IMG/VR virus record: IMGVR_UViG_3300050195_000279
Coordinates: 1 to 24,750 of that record
Origin: a virus
Taxonomy: Duplodnaviria; Caudoviricetes
Direction: 5' to 3' (one strand)
Length of the DNA: 24,750 bases
This document shows, in pieces, positions 6,822-20,804 of the stretch. Position 1 is the stretch's first letter. Every line of letters starts with the position of its first letter. A program made the position numbers and the translations under genes. The notes beneath the pieces are model-generated. The model was not told where the DNA came from. It did no database searches and was given only the letters and a program-made list of their open reading frames with translations.

Positions 6822-7622
6822 TCACCCACCTTTTACCGTGTTTGTCAGTTGATCGCTTGTCATCTGAAGATCGGAAACTGAGGACAACGCACCGACCGTA
6901 TTAGTCGTGTGCTTGTGGCCGTTGAATATCGACATGAATGCCGACGTGACGAAGCTCAGCAAACTCTGCCCAGAAGATCCCAACGTTATCGCCGGCGCAG
7001 TCACCGAAGCCGACTCAGTCGCCGCCACCATCACATTCGCCGCTGAAATATTGGCATTCCCCGTCACATTGATATTCACTGCGCCACCGATAGTGGCATT
7101 CCAGTTCCCGCTTGTTGTGATATCAATATCGTGCAATGACGGATTCAGACCGATAAACGCCGCCCCATCATTGCTGCGCAGTTGCACAGAATCCCCGCTC
7201 CAACCGCTGATTTTGGTGGCCTGCGAGAACGGCCCGGGAATGGCAAAGCCATCAGATAGGTCATGCATCCGCAGCTCTGATTGCACCTGCACATCACCAC
7301 TCTGCCACCATGCATCAATACACCGCGATGAGAAAACCACCAGGCACTCATCACCTTTGGCGATCGGGAAAGTCAGCGTACAGCCACCGCCGCGCGGAAA
7401 TGTGACCGGCACATCAAGCAGCAACGGCAACGCTACCCATTGCGTACTGCCATCCGGGCTACGGACATTCGCCTTAATCGCCGGCTGCACAGTGCAGGTC
7501 AACGCATCAGCATTAAAACTCTCGACAATGCCTGGGAGTGCAGTCCACATTCTGGCTTGACGACCGTCCAGCGCAGATCGCAATCCCTCTTCAAAATCAT
7601 TATGCAGTTCTCGTTGATCCAT
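6822..7622 (-). CDS. Baseplate central spike (gp138/gpV-like)
   Basis: ALPGIV, LLDVPV.FPRGGG, GDECLVVF..RCID.WW and RMHDLSD motifs plus a C-terminal HxH (GHKH) iron site; GGAG RBS before ATG 7622. The longer ORF-track start runs into the RNA array terminator. Confidence 0.85.
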   Translation of the reverse strand: MDQRELHNDFEEGLRSALDGRQARMWTALPGIVESFNADALTCTVQPAIKANVRSPDGSTQWVALPLLLDVPVTFPRGGGCTLTFPIAKGDECLVVFSSRCIDAWWQSGDVQVQSELRMHDLSDGFAIPGPFSQATKISGWSGDSVQLRSNDGAAFIGLNPSLHDIDITTSGNWNATIGGAVNINVTGNANISAANVMVAATESASVTAPAITLGSSGQSLLSFVTSAFMSIFNGHKHTTNTVGALSSVSDLQMTSDQLTNTVKGG

Positions 7623-7642
7623 AATCCAGTCTCCATAAAGAC

Positions 7643-7668
7643 AAAGGGCTCCATTTCTGGAGCCCTTC
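7643..7668 (-). terminator. Terminator-like hairpin closing the array
   Basis: AAGGGCTCCA-GAAA-TGGAGCCCTT followed by TGTCTTT. Confidence 0.6.
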
Positions 7669-7999
7669 GAATGCCATTTCTGGCCCATGCCTCACCACAC
7701 CGGGCCTTAACATGCCGGGCCGTACCCCGCCGAACCACGCCACACCAAAGCGGACTGGGCCGTACCCTTGATGCTATTCGCATCGGTCAGCCCGAAAGCT
7801 GACCGCTGAAAACAGCCCATGCCCTGCCTAAGCCAACCTCGGCTCAGCCCACCTCGCCGCAGCGCACACAAACATAGCTCGCCACAGATGCTTACCGCAT
7901 CAGATAGCAACCTCTTCGAAGATGCTACCTGCTGTTGTCAGCCCCTACCAAGCCAGACCGAAACGCACCTAATCACAGCACAACATGGCACGCCAATCC
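7643..7999 (-). ncRNA. Putative guide-RNA array: three period-5 G(G)Y-NN tracts separated by conserved hairpins, ending in a terminator-like stem
   Basis: Tracts at 7999-7945 (11 units), 7883-7819 (13 units) and 7766-7687 (16 units). G at unit position 1 in 38/40 units, pyrimidine at position 3 in 39/40, exact GGY in 24/40. Each tract ends in GG plus a 4-bp hairpin. Confidence 0.8.
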
Positions 8000-8467
8000 T
8001 TACTTCAAGCCTTTGCGATACATCCCCTTCATCGCCGCCATCTTTGCAACAGCATCAACATTCTCACGACGCTGCTCATCGGAAAGTTCAAACACCCGAA
8101 TGTTTCGCAGCTTATTGCCGGCACTGCGAAATGCTCGATTTGCATCCTTCTGAAATGCATCCTCAGCTATCCGAGTCTGCTCCTGAGGGGGAACCCAGCG
8201 AAAGCCCTCTCCGCGAACTGACTGAAGCAGAACTGAGTGATCCCGCAAAAGCTCATTCTTAAACGACTCGATGTTAGACAGCCATTCAAATTGATGACTC
8301 CGAAAGTCTTGCGCTGTCATTTCCACTTCATCGCCCATTGTCGGCATACCGAAATGCTCGGCAAGCCAAGCATGACTAATCATGTCGCCATACTTGAACT
8401 CTCGCAAGCAGTCCTGCACCGCCTGCCGCCACGATGGATATCGAGATAATTCCACCTCGTCACTCAT
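8000..8467 (-). CDS. Hypothetical protein (155 aa) between the RAMP-like gene and the array
   Basis: ATG 8467 overlaps the end of the upstream gene; its stop abuts the first repeat tract; helical protein with a SVRGEGFRWVPP segment. Confidence 0.75.
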   Translation of the reverse strand: MSDEVELSRYPSWRQAVQDCLREFKYGDMISHAWLAEHFGMPTMGDEVEMTAQDFRSHQFEWLSNIESFKNELLRDHSVLLQSVRGEGFRWVPPQEQTRIAEDAFQKDANRAFRSAGNKLRNIRVFELSDEQRRENVDAVAKMAAMKGMYRKGLK

Positions 8468-9029
8468 ACTCCACCTCGAATCGACCGAAGCGCGGGCGGA
8501 ATTCGCAAGTGCCAATCAAAGAGCCGGCATCTGAGATTGTTTTTTTGATTTCGTTCAAATCCAGCACTTCGGGATTGAACGCCACAGTCAGGTGGGCGGA
8601 CCAGTCCATGAATACCGGCCGATACCGCATCAGCTTGCTGGCACCAATCTTTACGCCCCGACAATCAACAAACCGAGAGTCCGCCCAAAGATCTTCTGGA
8701 CTGTCTGGGCCATCAAACATTAATTTTGCCCGGTCTGTCTGAACAAGCGCACCCCGTTTCCATGCTGTGCCAAGTTTTTGCAATTTCGCGCCGGCCAGAA
8801 AAGTCGCATCAAGATTTTGTCCTGGAATAAAGAACCCGACTTTCTTATCCCAATACGCCCCAGCAATGAACTCTGATTTTGCGATCGCGAGGTGATCCTC
8901 ATCAGTCTTCTTGCGCTTGCCAGTCAATTCTTTGTGTAACTTTGTTTCCGCCGCCAATGGGTTAGCAAGGCGGTCCGAGTGCATCATCAGCGGCGATGTG
9001 CCGGTAATTTTCAATTTCAGCAGTTCCAT
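8460..9029 (-). CDS. Stand-alone RAMP/Cas7-like RNA-binding protein (Vipr-like)
   Basis: N-terminal beta strand LKITGTSPLMMH, central FIPGQNL, RPVF..W strand and C-terminal Gly-containing loop AGSLIGTCEFRPRFGRF, matching the RAMP layout; TAATG-coupled to Rha. Confidence 0.7.
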   Translation of the reverse strand: MELLKLKITGTSPLMMHSDRLANPLAAETKLHKELTGKRKKTDEDHLAIAKSEFIAGAYWDKKVGFFIPGQNLDATFLAGAKLQKLGTAWKRGALVQTDRAKLMFDGPDSPEDLWADSRFVDCRGVKIGASKLMRYRPVFMDWSAHLTVAFNPEVLDLNEIKKTISDAGSLIGTCEFRPRFGRFEVEYE

Positions 9030-9727
9030 TACATCCCTCCGTGAATTTTTACTAAAGCGGCCTCAAGCGTCGTCTCATGATATGCGTTCACAACTCCATA
9101 TCTAGCATCCCGCACCTTGTCGATCGGGATACTTTTTTCCCGACTCAAGGTGCCGGCCGCCCGGCCAAGCCGCTGCATATCACGCATAGCTAACTTGATA
9201 CCGCGCAACGCACAAAAACCCATCACGGTGAAGAAAGAATGCCCCTCCTCAAAAGCTGATTGCTTTGCCTCGATACGCTTAATGCTCTCTTGTTGAATTG
9301 CCTGCTCAGCTTCTAACTCAGCCTGCTTCGCTTTTATCTTGACGTTATCGACCATCAAAGCGACAAGTGCTTGCTGCTCTGGGGGCAAATCAGCGAGTGG
9401 ATCTGGTGCATTCAATTTTGCGCGCATTTCAAAGAAGCCTTTCACCAGGGCAACTTTGAAAGATCGAACTATTTCGCTGTTCCGCATAAATGCAATCACC
9501 AAAGCAGATTGCTGCTCGTTCAGTACCGCGAACTCGATATCCGCACCACCATGTTGACCTACCTGTCTTGGTTGGATTTCAAATCTGACCAAGCCAAACG
9601 ACTCCAAATCGGCTCGATGCTTGCGCACCAGCTTAATTACACTTGCATGATCATTTTTTGTGCCAGCAGCAATTGCCAACGATGTCGTGACAGCTTCGCC
9701 GTCTTTGATAGTAATCAAATCGCTCAT
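9029..9727 (-). CDS. Rha-family phage regulatory protein
   Basis: VTTSLAIA...HASVIKLVR...LNEQQ...MRNS..V..FKVALVK.FFEMR N-terminal domain; coiled coil, then a C-terminal domain ending YG.VNAYH. Confidence 0.8.
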   Translation of the reverse strand: MSDLITIKDGEAVTTSLAIAAGTKNDHASVIKLVRKHRADLESFGLVRFEIQPRQVGQHGGADIEFAVLNEQQSALVIAFMRNSEIVRSFKVALVKGFFEMRAKLNAPDPLADLPPEQQALVALMVDNVKIKAKQAELEAEQAIQQESIKRIEAKQSAFEEGHSFFTVMGFCALRGIKLAMRDMQRLGRAAGTLSREKSIPIDKVRDARYGVVNAYHETTLEAALVKIHGGM

Positions 9728-9900
9728 GCTCTACCTCCACGCATCGCAGGTGTCACTGCCGCCGATTTAGACTTGTACTGTGCCACCAACATCGCCAACT
9801 CTCGCTGATCTAGCGATAGATACAGGGACAACAGACTTGATTCGTCGAGCGTCAATCTGTTGGGGTTCAGATATTGCGGTCGCAGGAGGTGATGGCTCAT
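9724..9900 (-). CDS. Small hypothetical protein (58 aa)
   Basis: My translation: MSHHLLRPQYLNPNRLTLDESSLLSLYLSLDQRELAMLVAQYKSKSAAVTPAMRGGRA; ATGA overlaps at both ends tile the operon exactly. Not in the ORF track. Confidence 0.65.
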   Translation of the reverse strand: MSHHLLRPQYLNPNRLTLDESSLLSLYLSLDQRELAMLVAQYKSKSAAVTPAMRGGRA

Positions 9901-10286
9901 GCTGCACCTCCAGCCACCAAACGAAGCGATGGGCGGGTGCGCTCTTTGGCAAAACGTGCGACCATTCTAGGCAACTCTCGTGACAGGCACGCCTGATCAC
10001 GCGGATCAATTTTCTGAAAATCTCGGGCGATATGAATGCCTGAATACGCTTTCGTACCCGCCTCGATGGCATCATTTATTGCAAGATCGTAAATGAATAT
10101 GCGATTCGAACCACTCATGCCCCTGTAGGCACGCACCAAACGCGCCTCTTCGGCTGTCAAGGCGACAACTTCGGTCGATTGGCTGACCAAAATAGGCTTT
10201 TTCGCATGCGAAATTTGTTGCACTTCCGCTGATGAAGCGCCATTTATAGATTGCCCAGTAATGCATAACGGCTTATCATTCGCCAT
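9897..10286 (-). CDS. Hypothetical protein with repressor-CTD-like LTxEExxLxxxYR motif
   Basis: AGGAAGG RBS; LTAEEARLVRAYRGM motif; C-terminal RPSLRLVAGG. Confidence 0.65.
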   Translation of the reverse strand: MANDKPLCITGQSINGASSAEVQQISHAKKPILVSQSTEVVALTAEEARLVRAYRGMSGSNRIFIYDLAINDAIEAGTKAYSGIHIARDFQKIDPRDQACLSRELPRMVARFAKERTRPSLRLVAGGAA

Positions 10287-10318
10287 AAATCACCTTCCTT
10301 TTGCTAGGGTTGTTGATT

Positions 10319-10359
10319 AAAACCCCGAACCCAATCCGCCAAGATCTGTTCGGGGTTTT
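10319..10359. other. 12-bp inverted repeat (attenuator, terminator or processing stem) inside the Arc-Rha operon
   Basis: AAAACCCCGAAC (10319-10330) pairs with GTTCGGGGTTTT (10348-10359). Confidence 0.7.
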
Positions 10360-10363
10360 TCGT

Positions 10364-10525
10364 TTACTGCACCGCATTTCGCGCACCTTCTTGCTGCACC
10401 TTCTTTTCCTTCAATACCGCGACGATCTGACCGTTCAGAGAACGTTCACTATCTTTCGCAATTTCTTTCATCCAATTCGCCAGTTCGATAGGCATTTTCA
10501 GTGTCATGCGATGGAACTCTTCCAT
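10364..10525 (-). CDS. Arc-like ribbon-helix-helix repressor (53 aa)
   Basis: My translation: MEEFHRMTLKMPIELANWMKEIAKDSERSLNGQIVAVLKEKKVQQEGARNAVQ; beta ribbon plus RSLNxQIV Arc signature. Not in the ORF track. Confidence 0.85.
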   Translation of the reverse strand: MEEFHRMTLKMPIELANWMKEIAKDSERSLNGQIVAVLKEKKVQQEGARNAVQ

Positions 10526-10540
10526 TTTTCACCCTTTCTC

Positions 10541-10592
10541 GACACTGTTTTAGTGTCATGAGCAAAGTATCTTACGACACTGAAACAGTGTC
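10541..10592. promoter_or_regulatory. Two 17-bp palindromic operators
   Basis: GACACT-GTTTT-AGTGTC (10541-10557) and GACACTG-AAA-CAGTGTC (10576-10592). Confidence 0.8.
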
Positions 10593-10594
10593 AA
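10566..10594 (-). promoter_or_regulatory. Sigma70 promoter for the arc-rha-RAMP-array operon
   Basis: TTGACA (10594-10589), 17-bp spacer, GATACT (10571-10566). Confidence 0.75.
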
Positions 10595-10631
10595 TCATTT
10601 TTTGACATATTTTTCGTGCTATCTTCCGACC

Positions 10632-11132
10632 ATGGAAAAAGACCGCTACACACGAATTACTCTTCGCATCCCATCTGACCTGTATGGAAAACTGGTGTAC
10701 GAGGCTGATGTCACGAGCAAATCCACGAATGCCGAAATCGTGGCGCGCTTAAATGACTCATTTTTAACCGACGATCCATCGGGGCGCCTTCGCGAACTCG
10801 AATTAACTGTCGAGCACAATGAAATCATTGTCACTGCACTCACCAATGAGTTAGAACGATGCCGCCAGGTTATTAGCACCCAAGAGCAACTTATTGCGAT
10901 GTTAGGCGTACACCTTCGCATAACTGCTGAGCGCGTTCCCACCTCCGACGACCAGACGTCCAATTCACTAATGGCTGTCATGAAAAACTTTGGTAATGCA
11001 ATTGCTCATAACGATCTAAAAAGCGCAGCCATCCCAATGATGGAATTACTTAAACTTGGAACTGACCTCGGGATTTTTAACGAGGATGGCACTCCTGGCC
11101 CAAACCATCCCAATGCCCGCAATAAGCCCTAA
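10632..11132 (+). CDS. Arc/Mnt-family DNA-binding protein with coiled-coil C-terminus
   Basis: RITLRIPSDL...KSTNAEIVARL RHH signature; divergent from the small Arc gene. Confidence 0.85.
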   Translation: MEKDRYTRITLRIPSDLYGKLVYEADVTSKSTNAEIVARLNDSFLTDDPSGRLRELELTVEHNEIIVTALTNELERCRQVISTQEQLIAMLGVHLRITAERVPTSDDQTSNSLMAVMKNFGNAIAHNDLKSAAIPMMELLKLGTDLGIFNEDGTPGPNHPNARNKP

Positions 11133-11755
11133 CTCTCCTAATCAACACCCTCACCTTCCCACGAAACGCAAAATCCAAATAATTGTTTCGTGGGCTATCG
11201 CAAATCTGCAACACCACCAATTTACCGGTTCCTGTCAGGCGTGGTTGCACCGCAAAGATAATCACATCTCCCGCAAAAGTCGTGTGACATGAATCGCACA
11301 ACGCCCTTGAAACCCACAGCCACTCTACCTGCCCCCGCAAACAGATCAACCATAAGGAATTCAAAAACGTTGTGATTGACAATCGCACATGCGCCTAACT
11401 GTACGTAGCCAAGCGAAATATACACCCCCGATAAACCGCCGTTCATGGCCCATTTCGAGGGTCTTGCCATTTACCCGGCCCCGTCAGTTCGATGCATCCA
11501 TTTTGCAACAAACATCTAGGCGCGGTTGCACAATGAAAATGAACAACGACATTTTCTTCCAAGCCAAAAATTTTTCACAGGCTGGAAACGTTTCCCGCGT
11601 TGACACGAAATAACTATCCGCCAAATTCTTGGCGTTATATGCAATTTCCCCGGGGAGAGTCATGCACCGCCAAAACTCAGAGCAACTATACTTCGTCGAT
11701 CAGTCACGAAATGGTCACGCTGAGGGGTGTTTTGGGGGTTTATTGGTATAGGCGT

Positions 11756-11782
11756 AAAAAAACCCGCCTGAGCGGGTTTTTT
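11756..11782. terminator. Bidirectional intrinsic terminator
   Basis: A7-CCCGC-CTGA-GCGGG-T6 between convergent transcription units. Confidence 0.8.
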
Positions 11783-12402
11783 TATTCATCTTTTTCTTGT
11801 TCCGACCTTGATCTATCTGGTCGATCTGGCGTCCCTTGTCGAATTGCCTCTATAACTCGTGGCCCCAAAAAAACAGCGCAGAGAACGCCAAGATCAAGGC
11901 CCGCGATAACACCAGCAACTACGGGGCTATAGGCGGCGACGATCCCGGCCGCAACCAAAGCTGCGACTGCGATCGCAAACGCAAGATATTGCCCCCGTTT
12001 ATCTTTGGCAATTGCTCCATCCAAGGCTTTTTGCTGAATAGCATGCGAGTGCTCTTGGGCCTTTACCGCCATCTGCAAAATGGATTGACGCACGTCAGAT
12101 GGATATGCGTTGATCACATCGGGCGGCGGAAGGGGTCCCGAAAACGTTCTTCGCTCCGTTACCTCCATACGTACAACTTGGAGCCCAATAAGCTGCGCCT
12201 CAATCACTTCAGGAGAAAATCGCCCCTTCAACTCACGCAGAATCTGTGCACGCTGCTGCATCGGCAAATTTTGCTCCAAAACTGGAGTCAATGCCGCATC
12301 CAACTCTGCTTCGTCAGGCAACTGAGGATCAGTTTTTTGATGACTATTAGCTTGCGCTTGTGGCTGCAAATGTCCGTTTGGATCTTCTTGCTGGGTCGTC
12401 AT
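11782..12402 (-). CDS. DUF2335-family membrane protein
   Basis: FSGPLPPP...Y...I..MA...Q.H...RGQ motif followed by two TM helices. Confidence 0.8.
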   Translation of the reverse strand: MTTQQEDPNGHLQPQAQANSHQKTDPQLPDEAELDAALTPVLEQNLPMQQRAQILRELKGRFSPEVIEAQLIGLQVVRMEVTERRTFSGPLPPPDVINAYPSDVRQSILQMAVKAQEHSHAIQQKALDGAIAKDKRGQYLAFAIAVAALVAAGIVAAYSPVVAGVIAGLDLGVLCAVFLGPRVIEAIRQGTPDRPDRSRSEQEKDE

Positions 12403-12647
12403 TTATAATACTTCTTCGAGTTCCATTCACTCTTAGGCAAGAGATGTTCAATGCACACGCCAGAATGTTTGTTTTTTGAAATGTATGCATCGGAAAAGTG
12501 AACTGCTGCCTCGTCAAAATAGCTACCAATGCGCTGCACTGTAGTACCGCGTGGCATGTATTCCAAATAACTTCCAAGAGGAAAAACATCCACAACGCTT
12601 CCAACCACTTTGGCTGCGGACGCGCGACGGCTAGATTTTTCGCTCAT
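12399..12647 (-). CDS. Small hypothetical protein coupled to DUF2335 (82 aa)
   Basis: GGAGAG RBS before ATG 12647; its end overlaps the DUF2335 start. Confidence 0.6.
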   Translation of the reverse strand: MSEKSSRRASAAKVVGSVVDVFPLGSYLEYMPRGTTVQRIGSYFDEAAVHFSDAYISKNKHSGVCIEHLLPKSEWNSKKYYK

Positions 12648-12857
12648 TACAACTCTCCAGCTTGAATTAATGACTGCATATAAATGATAAGAATTCTTAT
12701 CTACAACTTCTGTATACGCAAACAATAGCATGAATTAATGTAGTACATAAATTATCTAGAGTTTGAACAGTTGGCGCTATAAAACATACCCACATCGGTC
12801 TGACATTAATCTCAGATATCAGTTGCGCTATAGTTACCCCCTCACAGAGGAATAACT

Positions 12858-13334
12858 ATGAAAAAAATACTGATTAGTATTTTTCTATCAGCAAGCGCCA
12901 CCGAGGCACTTGCGCAATCTGCCGCCGCTGAGACAGCCCCGTGGTTTCCAATAACCAGCGCAATGTATGCACTCTCCCCACTGGAGGACAAAAAAATTGC
13001 ACTTTCTGCCTCGATTGATACAAATACCCATTTGGTTGCAATAAAACTGATAGATTTTGGTGGTGCCTACTGCGCTGTTCGTGAAACGTCTGCACCAAGC
13101 TCGATATCCCCAATTTCCGTTGATGGACAATTTTTGAAATTTACGCGTGGCTGCATAAATGGCACAGGGATCGTTCAGCCGGAATCAGAGCAAGGCAAAA
13201 AATTCCTATTGGATAAAGTGCAATCAGAGAAGCCATTTTTAATCGATGCTGGAGCTAATGGAACGCTACCATTTGCATCTAGAAACTTCTCCTCGGTAAT
13301 CAAAAAATTACAACAAGTTCAGAATGCTTTTTAA
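12858..13334 (+). CDS. Secreted/periplasmic hypothetical protein (moron)
   Basis: GAGGA RBS; Sec signal MKKILISIFLSASATEALA; one Cys pair; AT-rich. Confidence 0.7.
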   Translation: MKKILISIFLSASATEALAQSAAAETAPWFPITSAMYALSPLEDKKIALSASIDTNTHLVAIKLIDFGGAYCAVRETSAPSSISPISVDGQFLKFTRGCINGTGIVQPESEQGKKFLLDKVQSEKPFLIDAGANGTLPFASRNFSSVIKKLQQVQNAF

Positions 13335-13335
13335 T

Positions 13336-13767
13336 ATGAAAAAAAAACTGCTCGGGATGTTTTATTTGCTTTTCTGTTTGGGAATGACTGTAGCAGCTGA
13401 TGCTAGGTCTCAAGCCAAAGGCCTTGAATCTTTGGAGCGTCAACCGGCATTACTGCCCGGCCTTCCCGATCTCACAAAAAATGTGTACCTGTCCAAAGAC
13501 TCATTGGCGTGCGTGAGTAGATACGAAATCGTTGGCACATCAAAAGCATTTCCACAAAGAATTGAAGACCCTCAAATAGTCGCTGCCCTGCGGAGTAGTG
13601 GATGCGCTTTTTCAGACAAGGAGATGAGGGTAGTTGTTGAATTACCCGACGCATCTTCTGAACTTTACCTATCAGAGAAATATGCACAATACGTTGGCAT
13701 ATTTTGGCGAAATCCGAGTGGTCAAATTTGGCGCGGATACACAATGATTTCCAATCTGCATAACTAA
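13336..13767 (+). CDS. Secreted/periplasmic hypothetical protein (moron)
   Basis: Sec signal MKKKLLGMFYLLFCLGMTVAADA; mature Cys pair; stop overlaps the convergent hub stop. Confidence 0.65.
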   Translation: MKKKLLGMFYLLFCLGMTVAADARSQAKGLESLERQPALLPGLPDLTKNVYLSKDSLACVSRYEIVGTSKAFPQRIEDPQIVAALRSSGCAFSDKEMRVVVELPDASSELYLSEKYAQYVGIFWRNPSGQIWRGYTMISNLHN

Positions 13768-14726
13768 GCGCTAATCGGTACTGATTTGCTCTGATCTGGG
13801 GCTGTAATATCGACGCCCAAACAGGTCAAATCAACATACCAAGCCCCCCCGCGAGAATCGCCTGAAAACTCGCTGACAAGAACGCGATAAAATCCCTGCG
13901 CAGTAGTTGGCACGGCCGATAGAACTTCAGCGCCAGTGAATCCCTGTCGCTGCATCGTTATGTGGGTTATATTTTCTTGGTCAATTTGAATCAATCGACC
14001 AATACGAATCGCAGGATTAAGTAATGAGCGAACCTTAAGTCCACTATCGTTAATGGCCTCAGGCGTGCCAACAAGACCGCTCGCAGAAGACAAAACAACT
14101 GCCTCACCAGGGCGATATCCAGTGTTTTTGACTACTGAAAACTTTCCATTTTCAATATTCCATCGATAGCCGTACTTTGCGGCCCAATCTCGAGAAAAAT
14201 CACGGGCGAGTCCAAATTTAGCTACGCCTCTTATCGTTTTTACTACGCCCAACCCACTGCCCTCGATCAGGCCTGTCGCATCATTCGCAAGAGGAAGTGC
14301 ATTGACGCCATTTACCGACTGTACTTTCACAATAGACTCAATAACCTGCTGTGGCGTCTGTCCAGACTCGATAGATTGGCAAATTACTGCCCATGCATAC
14401 CATTGATCACCATCGCTTGCCACGATATCGAGAAATGAATCAGTATTTCGCTCCCGTCCCGTCATGACTTGGACAATAGTCCCGGAAAAAATTATTCCAA
14501 AGTTACCGCTCTCATATCCTGCTTGCAGAGAAACTGTTGTGAATTCCCGTTTCCGGAGAGCCTCCGCAGTCTCTCTCTTAACGTTATAGATTCTTAGGTG
14601 CATTTTATTCGGCGTCTGCGCATCGCTAGCCTTGGTCTTGAACGTAAATCGCAGCTCAGAAAGATCAAGCCCTTCCGTGCCAGAGCTCACGATCAAATTT
14701 GCCCGGCGAATCCATTGATCACTCAT
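13764..14726 (-). CDS. Baseplate hub protein
   Basis: DLSELR..F, RIYN, LQAGY, IFSG.I, DGD..Y, GLVG.PE, LLNP.I and GDSRG..WY motifs; position after tape measure and plug genes. Confidence 0.8.
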   Translation of the reverse strand: MSDQWIRRANLIVSSGTEGLDLSELRFTFKTKASDAQTPNKMHLRIYNVKRETAEALRKREFTTVSLQAGYESGNFGIIFSGTIVQVMTGRERNTDSFLDIVASDGDQWYAWAVICQSIESGQTPQQVIESIVKVQSVNGVNALPLANDATGLIEGSGLGVVKTIRGVAKFGLARDFSRDWAAKYGYRWNIENGKFSVVKNTGYRPGEAVVLSSASGLVGTPEAINDSGLKVRSLLNPAIRIGRLIQIDQENITHITMQRQGFTGAEVLSAVPTTAQGFYRVLVSEFSGDSRGGAWYVDLTCLGVDITAPDQSKSVPISA

Positions 14727-20215: not shown

Positions 20216-20277
20216 AAAAAAAAGAAAAAGCCGCAGAAGGCGGCCCAGAAACGAGAAACCCGGCGCTGGGCCGGGTC
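20216..20277 (-). terminator. Two tandem hairpins after rha, the second with a long T tail
   Basis: ACCCGGC-CCAGC-GCCGGGT, then GCCGC-CTTCT-GCGGC-TTTTTCTTTTTTTT. Confidence 0.6.
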
Positions 20278-20791
20278 AGTGAAGTAACAGTGATGGTTGT
20301 ATTTCGGCTTCCAGCCGGATCCGCTCATGCTGCAGCGGCGGAATTTCCTTCTTTCGCTGCAGCATCAGGTGTGAGCCGAATGACGCCCGGACCTTCGATT
20401 CCACCTCTTTTGCGATCAGTGCCTGCATCTGCTGCCAGAGGTTGGAATTGCGATGATTCAATGTGTCGCGCATCCTGAAGAACTCTTTCACCAGCGCCAC
20501 TTTGAAATCGATGACCTTTTTGCTGTTGCGCATCAACGACAATAAGAGTGCCGCCTGATGTTCATTCAGCATTGCAATTTCCCGGGACTGCGTGCCGCCA
20601 TTCGTCACAAAGGGTGCAATCTGAAATTGCACCCCTCCAAGTTCGCCCAGTGATCCACTATGCTTGCGAACTAGCTGCATGACGGCCCGGTGTTTTTGCC
20701 CCATTTCTTGGGAAATGACTTCGGTTGAGGTCAGCGGTTCACCGTCAACGGCAACAACAAACCGAAAATTCCCAAAACTAATATCGTTCAT
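20276..20791 (-). CDS. Rha-family phage regulatory protein (second copy)
   Basis: TSTEVIS...HRAVMQLVR...LNEHQA...MRNS..V..FKVALVKEFFRMR. Confidence 0.8.
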   Translation of the reverse strand: MNDISFGNFRFVVAVDGEPLTSTEVISQEMGQKHRAVMQLVRKHSGSLGELGGVQFQIAPFVTNGGTQSREIAMLNEHQAALLLSLMRNSKKVIDFKVALVKEFFRMRDTLNHRNSNLWQQMQALIAKEVESKVRASFGSHLMLQRKKEIPPLQHERIRLEAEIQPSLLLH

Positions 20792-20804
20792 TCGAAACCC
20801 CAAT

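Follow-up and report, generated by a model that had tools for sequence, protein, structure and literature searches.

Why should a block of accessory genes lie between the hub and the spike gene of a single baseplate module? The question is raised by a stretch of 24,750 bases from a virus record (IMG/VR IMGVR_UViG_3300050195_000279, Caudoviricetes; hereafter the window), whose minus strand carries a myophage tail module. An original prediction, made from the letters alone, held that the block contains a cassette with three guides aimed at the adjoining hub gene, that the hub of a relative would be blocked while the carrier's own allele resists, and that the cassette would in this way spread much as homing elements do. 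Judged by its sequence, the block holds a type II VIPR system, comprising Vipr, a Vap1 homolog and three GGY-NN guides. Two of these guides match hub alleles of related phages and match the carrier's own hub less well, and across homologous cassettes the targeted genes are tied to the place where the cassette is inserted.

VIPR systems as such are already known. The accessible portions of four preprints describe a code that skips one nucleotide and, for type II, repression without cleavage (10.64898/2026.04.26.720920; 10.64898/2026.04.26.720927; 10.64898/2026.10.15.759431; 10.64898/2026.10.21.760802). The argument that a skipped wobble position closes off synonymous escape is likewise in print in those portions (10.64898/2026.04.26.720920, Discussion; 10.64898/2026.10.15.759431). 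The window's cassette has the features by which type II is recognised: a SUSP1-type Vipr, a vap1 gene adjoining vipr, vrRNAs of 9-16 units with structured 3' tails, targets read with a one-nucleotide skip that falls on the wobble position, and self matches in the window of less than 80%. Its Vipr is about 42% identical to that of SUSP1, and its Vap1 homolog is 27% identical (E 4e-19; hhalign 98%) to the product of the gene that follows vipr in SUSP1. A fold search with the latter protein returned matches to generic helical hairpins only, and among the 10 open reading frames (ORFs) of the block, the vap1 homolog included, Pfam and PHROGs gave no match to a nuclease family and no recognisable acquisition enzyme. 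The tails of all three guides are predicted to fold stably (z of -3.3 to -5.6). The parts of the cassette and the two genes that flank the block are as follows.

6822..7622 (-): baseplate spike gene (PF18352, E 1.7e-40), with no match to any of the three guides
7642..7686 (-): tail of vr3 with a terminator-like hairpin, just upstream of the spike gene (folding, terminator prediction)
7687..7766 (-): vr3 guide, 16 units, matching the antisense strand of relatives' hub
7767..7818 (-): structured tail of vr2, aligning over 60 nt with a tail of locus L025 at 95% identity
7819..7883 (-): vr2 guide, 13 units, matching the sense strand of relatives' hub
7884..7944 (-): structured tail of vr1 (fold z -3.3)
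7945..7999 (-): vr1 guide, 11 GGY-NN units, matching a gene predicted to encode the tail sheath in an unrelated family of myophages
8000..8467 (-): vap1 homolog, 155 amino acids (aa), with a predicted winged-helix-like domain and helical hairpin (sequence comparison, structure model)
8460..9029 (-): vipr, 189 aa, RAMP-like guide-binding protein (PDB 36pp, SUSP1 Vipr, E 3.2e-45 over residues 1-187; phrog_4652)
9029..10525 (-): arc-like gene, two small ORFs and a Rha-family regulator, the upstream part of the predicted cassette operon (Pfam, PHROGs)
10541..10594 (-): near-consensus sigma70-like promoter (TTGACA-17-GATACT) and, overlapping it at 10541-10592, a 22-bp inverted repeat as candidate operator, between the divergent Arc-like genes
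10632..11132 (+): divergent Arc-like repressor, the likely cassette regulator (PF03869 weak; several Arc PHROGs)
13764..14726 (-): baseplate hub gene (phrog_196, E 1.8e-55; PF22759 weak), the gene targeted by vr2 and vr3, of which the carrier allele is poorly matched
14041..14087 (+): own-hub counterpart of the vr3 site, read in antisense over codons 214-229 with the wobble base skipped, 19/32, with a one-codon insertion relative to kin
14392..14429 (-): own-hub counterpart of the vr2 site, read in sense from codon 100 with the wobble base skipped, 17/26

Promoter-like sites are no commoner in this region than in shuffled sequence, and the promoter and operator are therefore putative. That the block parts hub from spike, as the original prediction had it, is borne out by the phrog_196 and PF18352 assignments and by a hub-to-spike distance of 6142 bp. 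The same gap, taken as the distance between tblastn ends, was determined in 94 non-redundant homologous loci that have the two genes: it does not exceed 100 bp in 34 of them, measures 101-1000 bp in 59 and is longer than 1000 bp in one. Read from the hub, the block consists of small morons, the divergent Arc-like gene, the predicted promoter, arc, rha, the 189-aa gene, the 155-aa gene, three pentamer arrays, the terminator and then the spike gene. The claim that the cassette stands beside its target is correct as to the shared intergenic slot and inexact beyond that, since it is the spike that the guides abut (the terminator ends about 20 bp ahead of its start), and vipr lies about 4.7 kb from the hub.

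On the window itself the guides do no better than chance at any skip: the best self scores are 17/26 for vr2, 19/32 for vr3 and 14/22 for vr1, and shuffled guides do equally well in 61% of cases for vr2 and 87% for vr3. The hub matches of vr2 and vr3 become significant only on the hubs of relatives, where both are aligned with the skip on the wobble position. Across IMG/VR, a 9-unit vr2 pattern gave 24 matches, 22 of them in hub genes, at 22-24/26 positions, and in 401 genomes of a Burkholderiales family its three matches were all hubs (control 0). The exact 11-unit vr3 pattern had no match in IMG/VR; a second, 18-base vr3 pattern had 25 there, all in hubs, antisense and at 22-26/32. The vr2 pattern and this second vr3 pattern were picked after the kin alleles had been seen, so that matches in those kin were assured; the scans were not confined to hub genes. 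Hubs were also scored directly, with the last, mostly constant guide unit left out. Scored thus, the window's own hub gives 17/24 for vr2, against 19-23 in the 25 close kin (at least 80% in 20/25), and 19/30 for vr3, against 22-26 in those kin (at least 80% in 21/25); for both guides the own hub falls below every one of the close kin. Only one of 74 distant hubs attains 80% for vr2, and none does for vr3.

The window hub is nested within the targeted clade (support 1.0) on a long branch, with 55% identity to kin against 71-72% among the kin themselves, and no other gene of the window lags its kin as much (55 v 72%). The sites read by vr2 and vr3 are conserved core motifs, at the 85-90th percentile of conservation among kin. 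With the query used, Vipr was not found in 49 records of hub kin and sheath-family phages (the control, L007, was positive) or in five host genomes. One further stretch of the hub, codons ~160-175, shows ~90% conservation in kin at positions 1-2 of its codons and only ~38% matching in the window; it is more divergent than either present guide site, which possibly reflects escape from a lost or foreign guide.

The three hub sites of the original prediction reduce to two, because vr1 does not match the hub: as a third hub guide it was rejected, with at most 13/20 on close hubs and at most 15/20 on the 74 distant ones. Instead, the vr1 pattern had 14 matches, all antisense and all in a single gene of myophages from an unrelated family, each reaching 20/22 when the first unit, outside the pattern, is included; on the 20-position scoring the match is 20/20. 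This gene is predicted to encode the tail sheath from its position, a weak Pfam match and its Atlas neighbours. VIPR carriers exist in the sheath family (L025 and L477, with the sheath 3-6 kb from vipr), and on these vr1 scores only 15 and 14 of 20. The window's arc region is 78% identical to that of L025, but in the Vipr tree the two do not group together. The vr1 guide may be left over from a time when the cassette resided in a sheath-family phage, or it may be a plain anti-competitor guide. The contig names of L001, whose cassette proteins are 100% identical to the window's, and of L235, which carries a 20/20 vr1 target, begin with the same dataset prefix, a hint that the carrier and a sheath-family target are found together.

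Is the target tied to the insertion site in phages other than this one? Vipr loci were collected, their guides extracted and 84 records extended to near full length, and whole records were scanned for non-self targets at E<0.01; 120 guides had a carrier record, and the window's own record is partial. Significant targets were obtained for 33/120 guides at skip 1, as against none for unit-shuffled guides, one at skip 0 and none at skip 2. A carrier homolog of the target could be mapped for 23 of the 33, and in 21 of these it lies within 8 kb of vipr. The median target distance percentile is 0.21 of shared coding sequence, and 14/15 carriers fall below 0.5 once vipr-targeting guides are left out (p ~0.001). 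A lack of relation between targets and insertion site in homologous arrays had been named beforehand as a possible refutation of the original prediction; the targets do track the insertion site.

The correspondence extends to the class of gene. Cassettes between gp18 and the hub (L010, L012, L043) match the gene before the tape measure (chaperone region), the tape measure, hub and spike, and the genes matched by tail-module cassettes of Pseudomonas siphophages are either vipr itself or those for tube, chaperone, tape measure and minor tail proteins. A contrast group is provided by cI-adjacent cassettes, those of LESphi2 and seven relatives, which have three guides upstream of vipr; here all three significant guides match the sigma/LuxR gene, small ORF and Arc gene that occupy this slot in F10, D14L and CF140a. 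Guide 1 of the cI-adjacent L367 has two perfect matches in 401 Pseudomonas genomes, both in an allele of the ORF directly after the carrier's vap, and among 12 matches at 19/20 of the guide of L366, also cI-adjacent, five fall immediately beyond the sigma gene next to cI. Three tail architectures occur within a single Vipr clade (support 0.97), and therefore target class tracks the slot and not Vipr ancestry. The large environmental clade L372-L408 (1-8 arrays per locus) is uninformative on this tie, since it gave no target at E<0.01 in the records scanned. The best match of the first L010 guide on G125 was set aside as probably a chance tie, a larger set leading to the gene before the tape measure.

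The carriers' own alleles are matched less well. Perfect self targets in carriers had been named as the other possible refutation of the original prediction; none was seen, a self match of at least 90% occurring in 0/120 guides and of at least 80% in 12/120. Sister phages with an empty site permit a closer comparison, in which the homologous site is scored in both. L043 and its empty-site sister L185 are 90-96% identical over aligned stretches, and the scores (sister v carrier) are 20 v 16, 18 v 16 and 16 v 16; L140 and L138 each give 23 v 20 against the carrier L012, and L126 gives 16 v 14, 20 v 14 and 19 v 16 against L010. The sister allele is thus better matched in 7/8 comparisons. Differences at read positions are enriched relative to nearby codons at 3/4 sites (p 0.011, 0.0009 and 0.027; 0.25 for the spike), and the cassette-proximal ~300 nt of the hub are more divergent from the sister than is the rest of that gene. 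In the comparison of alleles with and without the cassette that the original prediction called for, it is thus the empty-site sisters of homologous carriers that hold the better-matching alleles; for the window phage itself no close cassette-free sister was found. Taken as a whole, the original prediction is supported in part.

We tentatively favour, as a nearly even proposition, a form of linkage selection that would be the silencing-based analogue of marker exclusion. The cassette would be expressed from its own Arc-regulated promoter, in the lysogen or early in infection, and Vipr with its guides would silence the tail genes of rivals, the carrier's mismatched hub escaping. The late operon of the rival would be blocked and the rival left short of tails. 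During coinfection, tail parts made by the carrier could complement the rival, so that the effect would be strongest from a lysogen. The cassette would enter a new phage by recombination in the flanks, and only guides with a co-travelling resistant allele would avoid self-silencing. Conversely, a rival that escapes by taking up the carrier's allele would tend to gain the cassette too, since cassette and resistant neighbour, being inherited together, are likely to stay linked. Marker exclusion would here operate through silencing and selection and not through cutting and repair. A bolder extension, possible and rather more doubtful, is that VIPR in temperate phages acts as a nuclease-free, RNA-programmed drive: the flank-gene alleles of rivals are silenced, surviving recombinants carry the resistant flank and cassette, guides are re-aimed after each jump, and, the wobble route of escape being shut, core tail genes are pushed towards amino-acid change.

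Several observations weigh against linkage selection. No significant target was found for 87/120 guides, and 10 of the 33 significant guides have no mappable carrier homolog; the p values of the survey are optimistic, guides and carriers being related. Some targets are distant, namely a portal 14.8 kb off (L012), a primase/helicase (L025) and a head morphogenesis gene (L064), and vr1 has no homologous site for its target in the window. Seven of the 12 L366 matches lie outside prophage slots, six in one permease-like motif and one elsewhere. In SUSP1 the system is located between a ligase and small genes, and 18/20 targets in its clade are on a satellite (10.64898/2026.04.26.720920). Enrichment of differences at guide sites is to be expected in any case, because purging of self-matching guides leaves only sites at which self differs, and L199 and L200 possess escape codons like those of L012 with no cassette at that locus. 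Within the window hub, the notion that vr2 and vr3 read the sites of greatest self-divergence was unsupported (84th and 65th percentile), as was accelerated evolution of this gene (ratios of 21:14 to 27:16, none significant). The search for a close cassette-free sister of the window phage yielded 250-bp bins of ~61-82% nucleotide identity at best, too distant to map a transferred tract, so that co-transfer at this locus is conjectural.

Proximity of cassette and target might also have arisen in other ways. Guides may be written preferentially from rival DNA homologous to the cassette flanks, a recombination intermediate for instance, in which case proximity records origin and not selection. 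That several targets are the very next gene, as with guide 1 of L367 and the ORF behind vap, and that guides against vipr itself and adjacent regulators occur, would suit such local acquisition, and the VIPR preprints, in their accessible portions, describe no acquisition route; the distant and foreign targets and the lack of a recognised acquisition enzyme in the block nevertheless make it unlikely. Alternatively, insertion may simply happen where kin differ most while self-avoidance confines guides to the same places, making proximity a by-product with no effect on spread. Hub flanks are indeed rich in morons (59/94 hub–spike gaps of 101-1000 bp), the hub shows the window's worst lag behind kin, and resistant codons are present in cassette-free phages too. 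The targets, on the other hand, are conserved core motifs, and sisters more than 90% identical still differ at guide sites, and we regard shared hot spots as rather improbable.

An equally improbable account, to our minds, is one in which the cassette is expressed at a time dictated by its position, and the guides retained are those against genes whose blockage pays at that stage (late for tail genes, early for regulators). Target class does follow the module, tail-inserted cassettes matching tail genes and cI-adjacent ones regulators, and lysis-lysogeny regulators are what the Pseudomonas fulva clade reportedly targets (10.64898/2026.04.26.720920). Against this, head and lysis genes, which are also late, are rarely matched, and the timing of expression need not follow the late operon, because a promoter, a divergent repressor and a terminator of its own are predicted for the cassette. 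Least credible of all is true homing, in which the rival's hub would be cut by the complex or a partner, and the resistant allele copied in along with the cassette during repair, in the manner of T4's free-standing endonucleases. The geometry is that of intronless homing as described in the accessible part of PMC12724721, and a divergent hub tract adjoining the cassette resembles a co-conversion tract. Yet none of the 10 block ORFs matched a nuclease family in Pfam or PHROGs, leaving cleavage-driven homing unsupported; the reported type II activity is repression; and Vap1 of SUSP1, the homolog of the window's Vap, is placed among DNA-binding proteins, types III and V being the only ones for which nucleases are named (10.64898/2026.04.26.720920).

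Linkage selection by silencing is best contextualized with respect to the systems that the window's cassette resembles. The type II VIPR of SUSP1 has the same Vipr and Vap1, GGY-NN guides and structured tails, the same one-nucleotide wobble skip, viral targets on either strand and poor self match (10.64898/2026.04.26.720920; 10.64898/2026.04.26.720927; 10.64898/2026.10.15.759431). It differs in that SUSP1 is a lytic phage with its cassette in a DNA-metabolism region and a satellite as target, whereas the window's cassette sits in a baseplate module behind an arc-rha operon, with all guides downstream and two of them directed against kin alleles of the flanking gene. The P. fulva systems are similar in being prophage-borne; they target other prophages with one locus favoured, and some of their guides are directed against other VIPR (10.64898/2026.04.26.720920). 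Their reported targets are lysis-lysogeny regulators, and the main text draws no link to cassette position; the LESphi2-type cI-adjacent loci probably belong to this clade. Marker exclusion by SegF and SegG of T4, as set out in the accessible part of PMC12724721, is alike in that the element lies near and not in the attacked gene, the carrier allele is resistant, and neighbouring markers are expected to co-travel. The pattern by which homing endonucleases are known, a neighbouring gene of relatives targeted and the carrier allele resistant, is found for 2/3 window guides and for the sister pairs; unlike free-standing homing endonucleases, the window's cassette employs programmable RNA, addresses several genes per cassette, has no nuclease found in it and would spread via silencing and selection.

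Lambdoid morons and the immI region of P22, with arc and ant, are self-contained units with a promoter, Arc-type regulators and a terminator, placed among structural genes. The window's cassette is predicted to share this layout and differs in its payload, an RNA-guided silencer of rivals' genes. In the accessible literature on VIPR with homing, marker exclusion, prophages or tails, we found neither the linkage of slot and target nor cassettes placed in a tail module and directed at kin alleles, a point on which data S3 and figure S15 of 10.64898/2026.04.26.720920 may bear. Such linkage offers a positional rule for predicting natural VIPR targets and a handle on how vrRNA guides are gained and kept. 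It also suggests a homing-like selfish element that acts through silencing and not cutting, and points to a pressure that could drive diversity in conserved phage tail proteins and influence where mosaic boundaries fall.

The remainder of the block is not part of this cassette. The block is composite, the hub-side morons being separate from VIPR:

11754-11785: hairpin terminator after the moron pair
11782..12731 (-): moron pair, a 110-aa ORF and a DUF2335 membrane protein (Pfam/PHROG)
12858..13767 (+): two small ORFs (158 and 143 aa) with signal-like N-termini, morons downstream of the hub and outside VIPR (phrog_22446 for the 158-aa ORF)

Homologs of the 143-aa ORF (13336-13767), at 47-48%, occupy the same place behind the hub in three cassette-free loci (L106, L157 and L208). 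A second Rha-family gene of the window (20276-20803, -) is inserted upstream of the sheath gene, and L012 has a related insert behind its spike.

The wider survey also furnished some minor observations on guides. At L037:11076, L040:11073 and L064:11065, guides match the vipr of other phages (20-21 of 20-22) and their own vipr less well, a kind known from the preprints. The guides near 11083 of L056-L061 are very long (17-29 units), and runs of units are duplicated within them, which suggests array slippage. Solo guides away from vipr were absent from the first 359 loci, and one was found elsewhere, in CF140a (L492, MK510974.1), at 26813-26867 (-), where a vrRNA with a typical tail stands alone in the cI-adjacent slot. 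A short ORF that follows it (26134-26400) may be a cassette remnant, and CF140a is itself the perfect target of two LESphi2-type guides.

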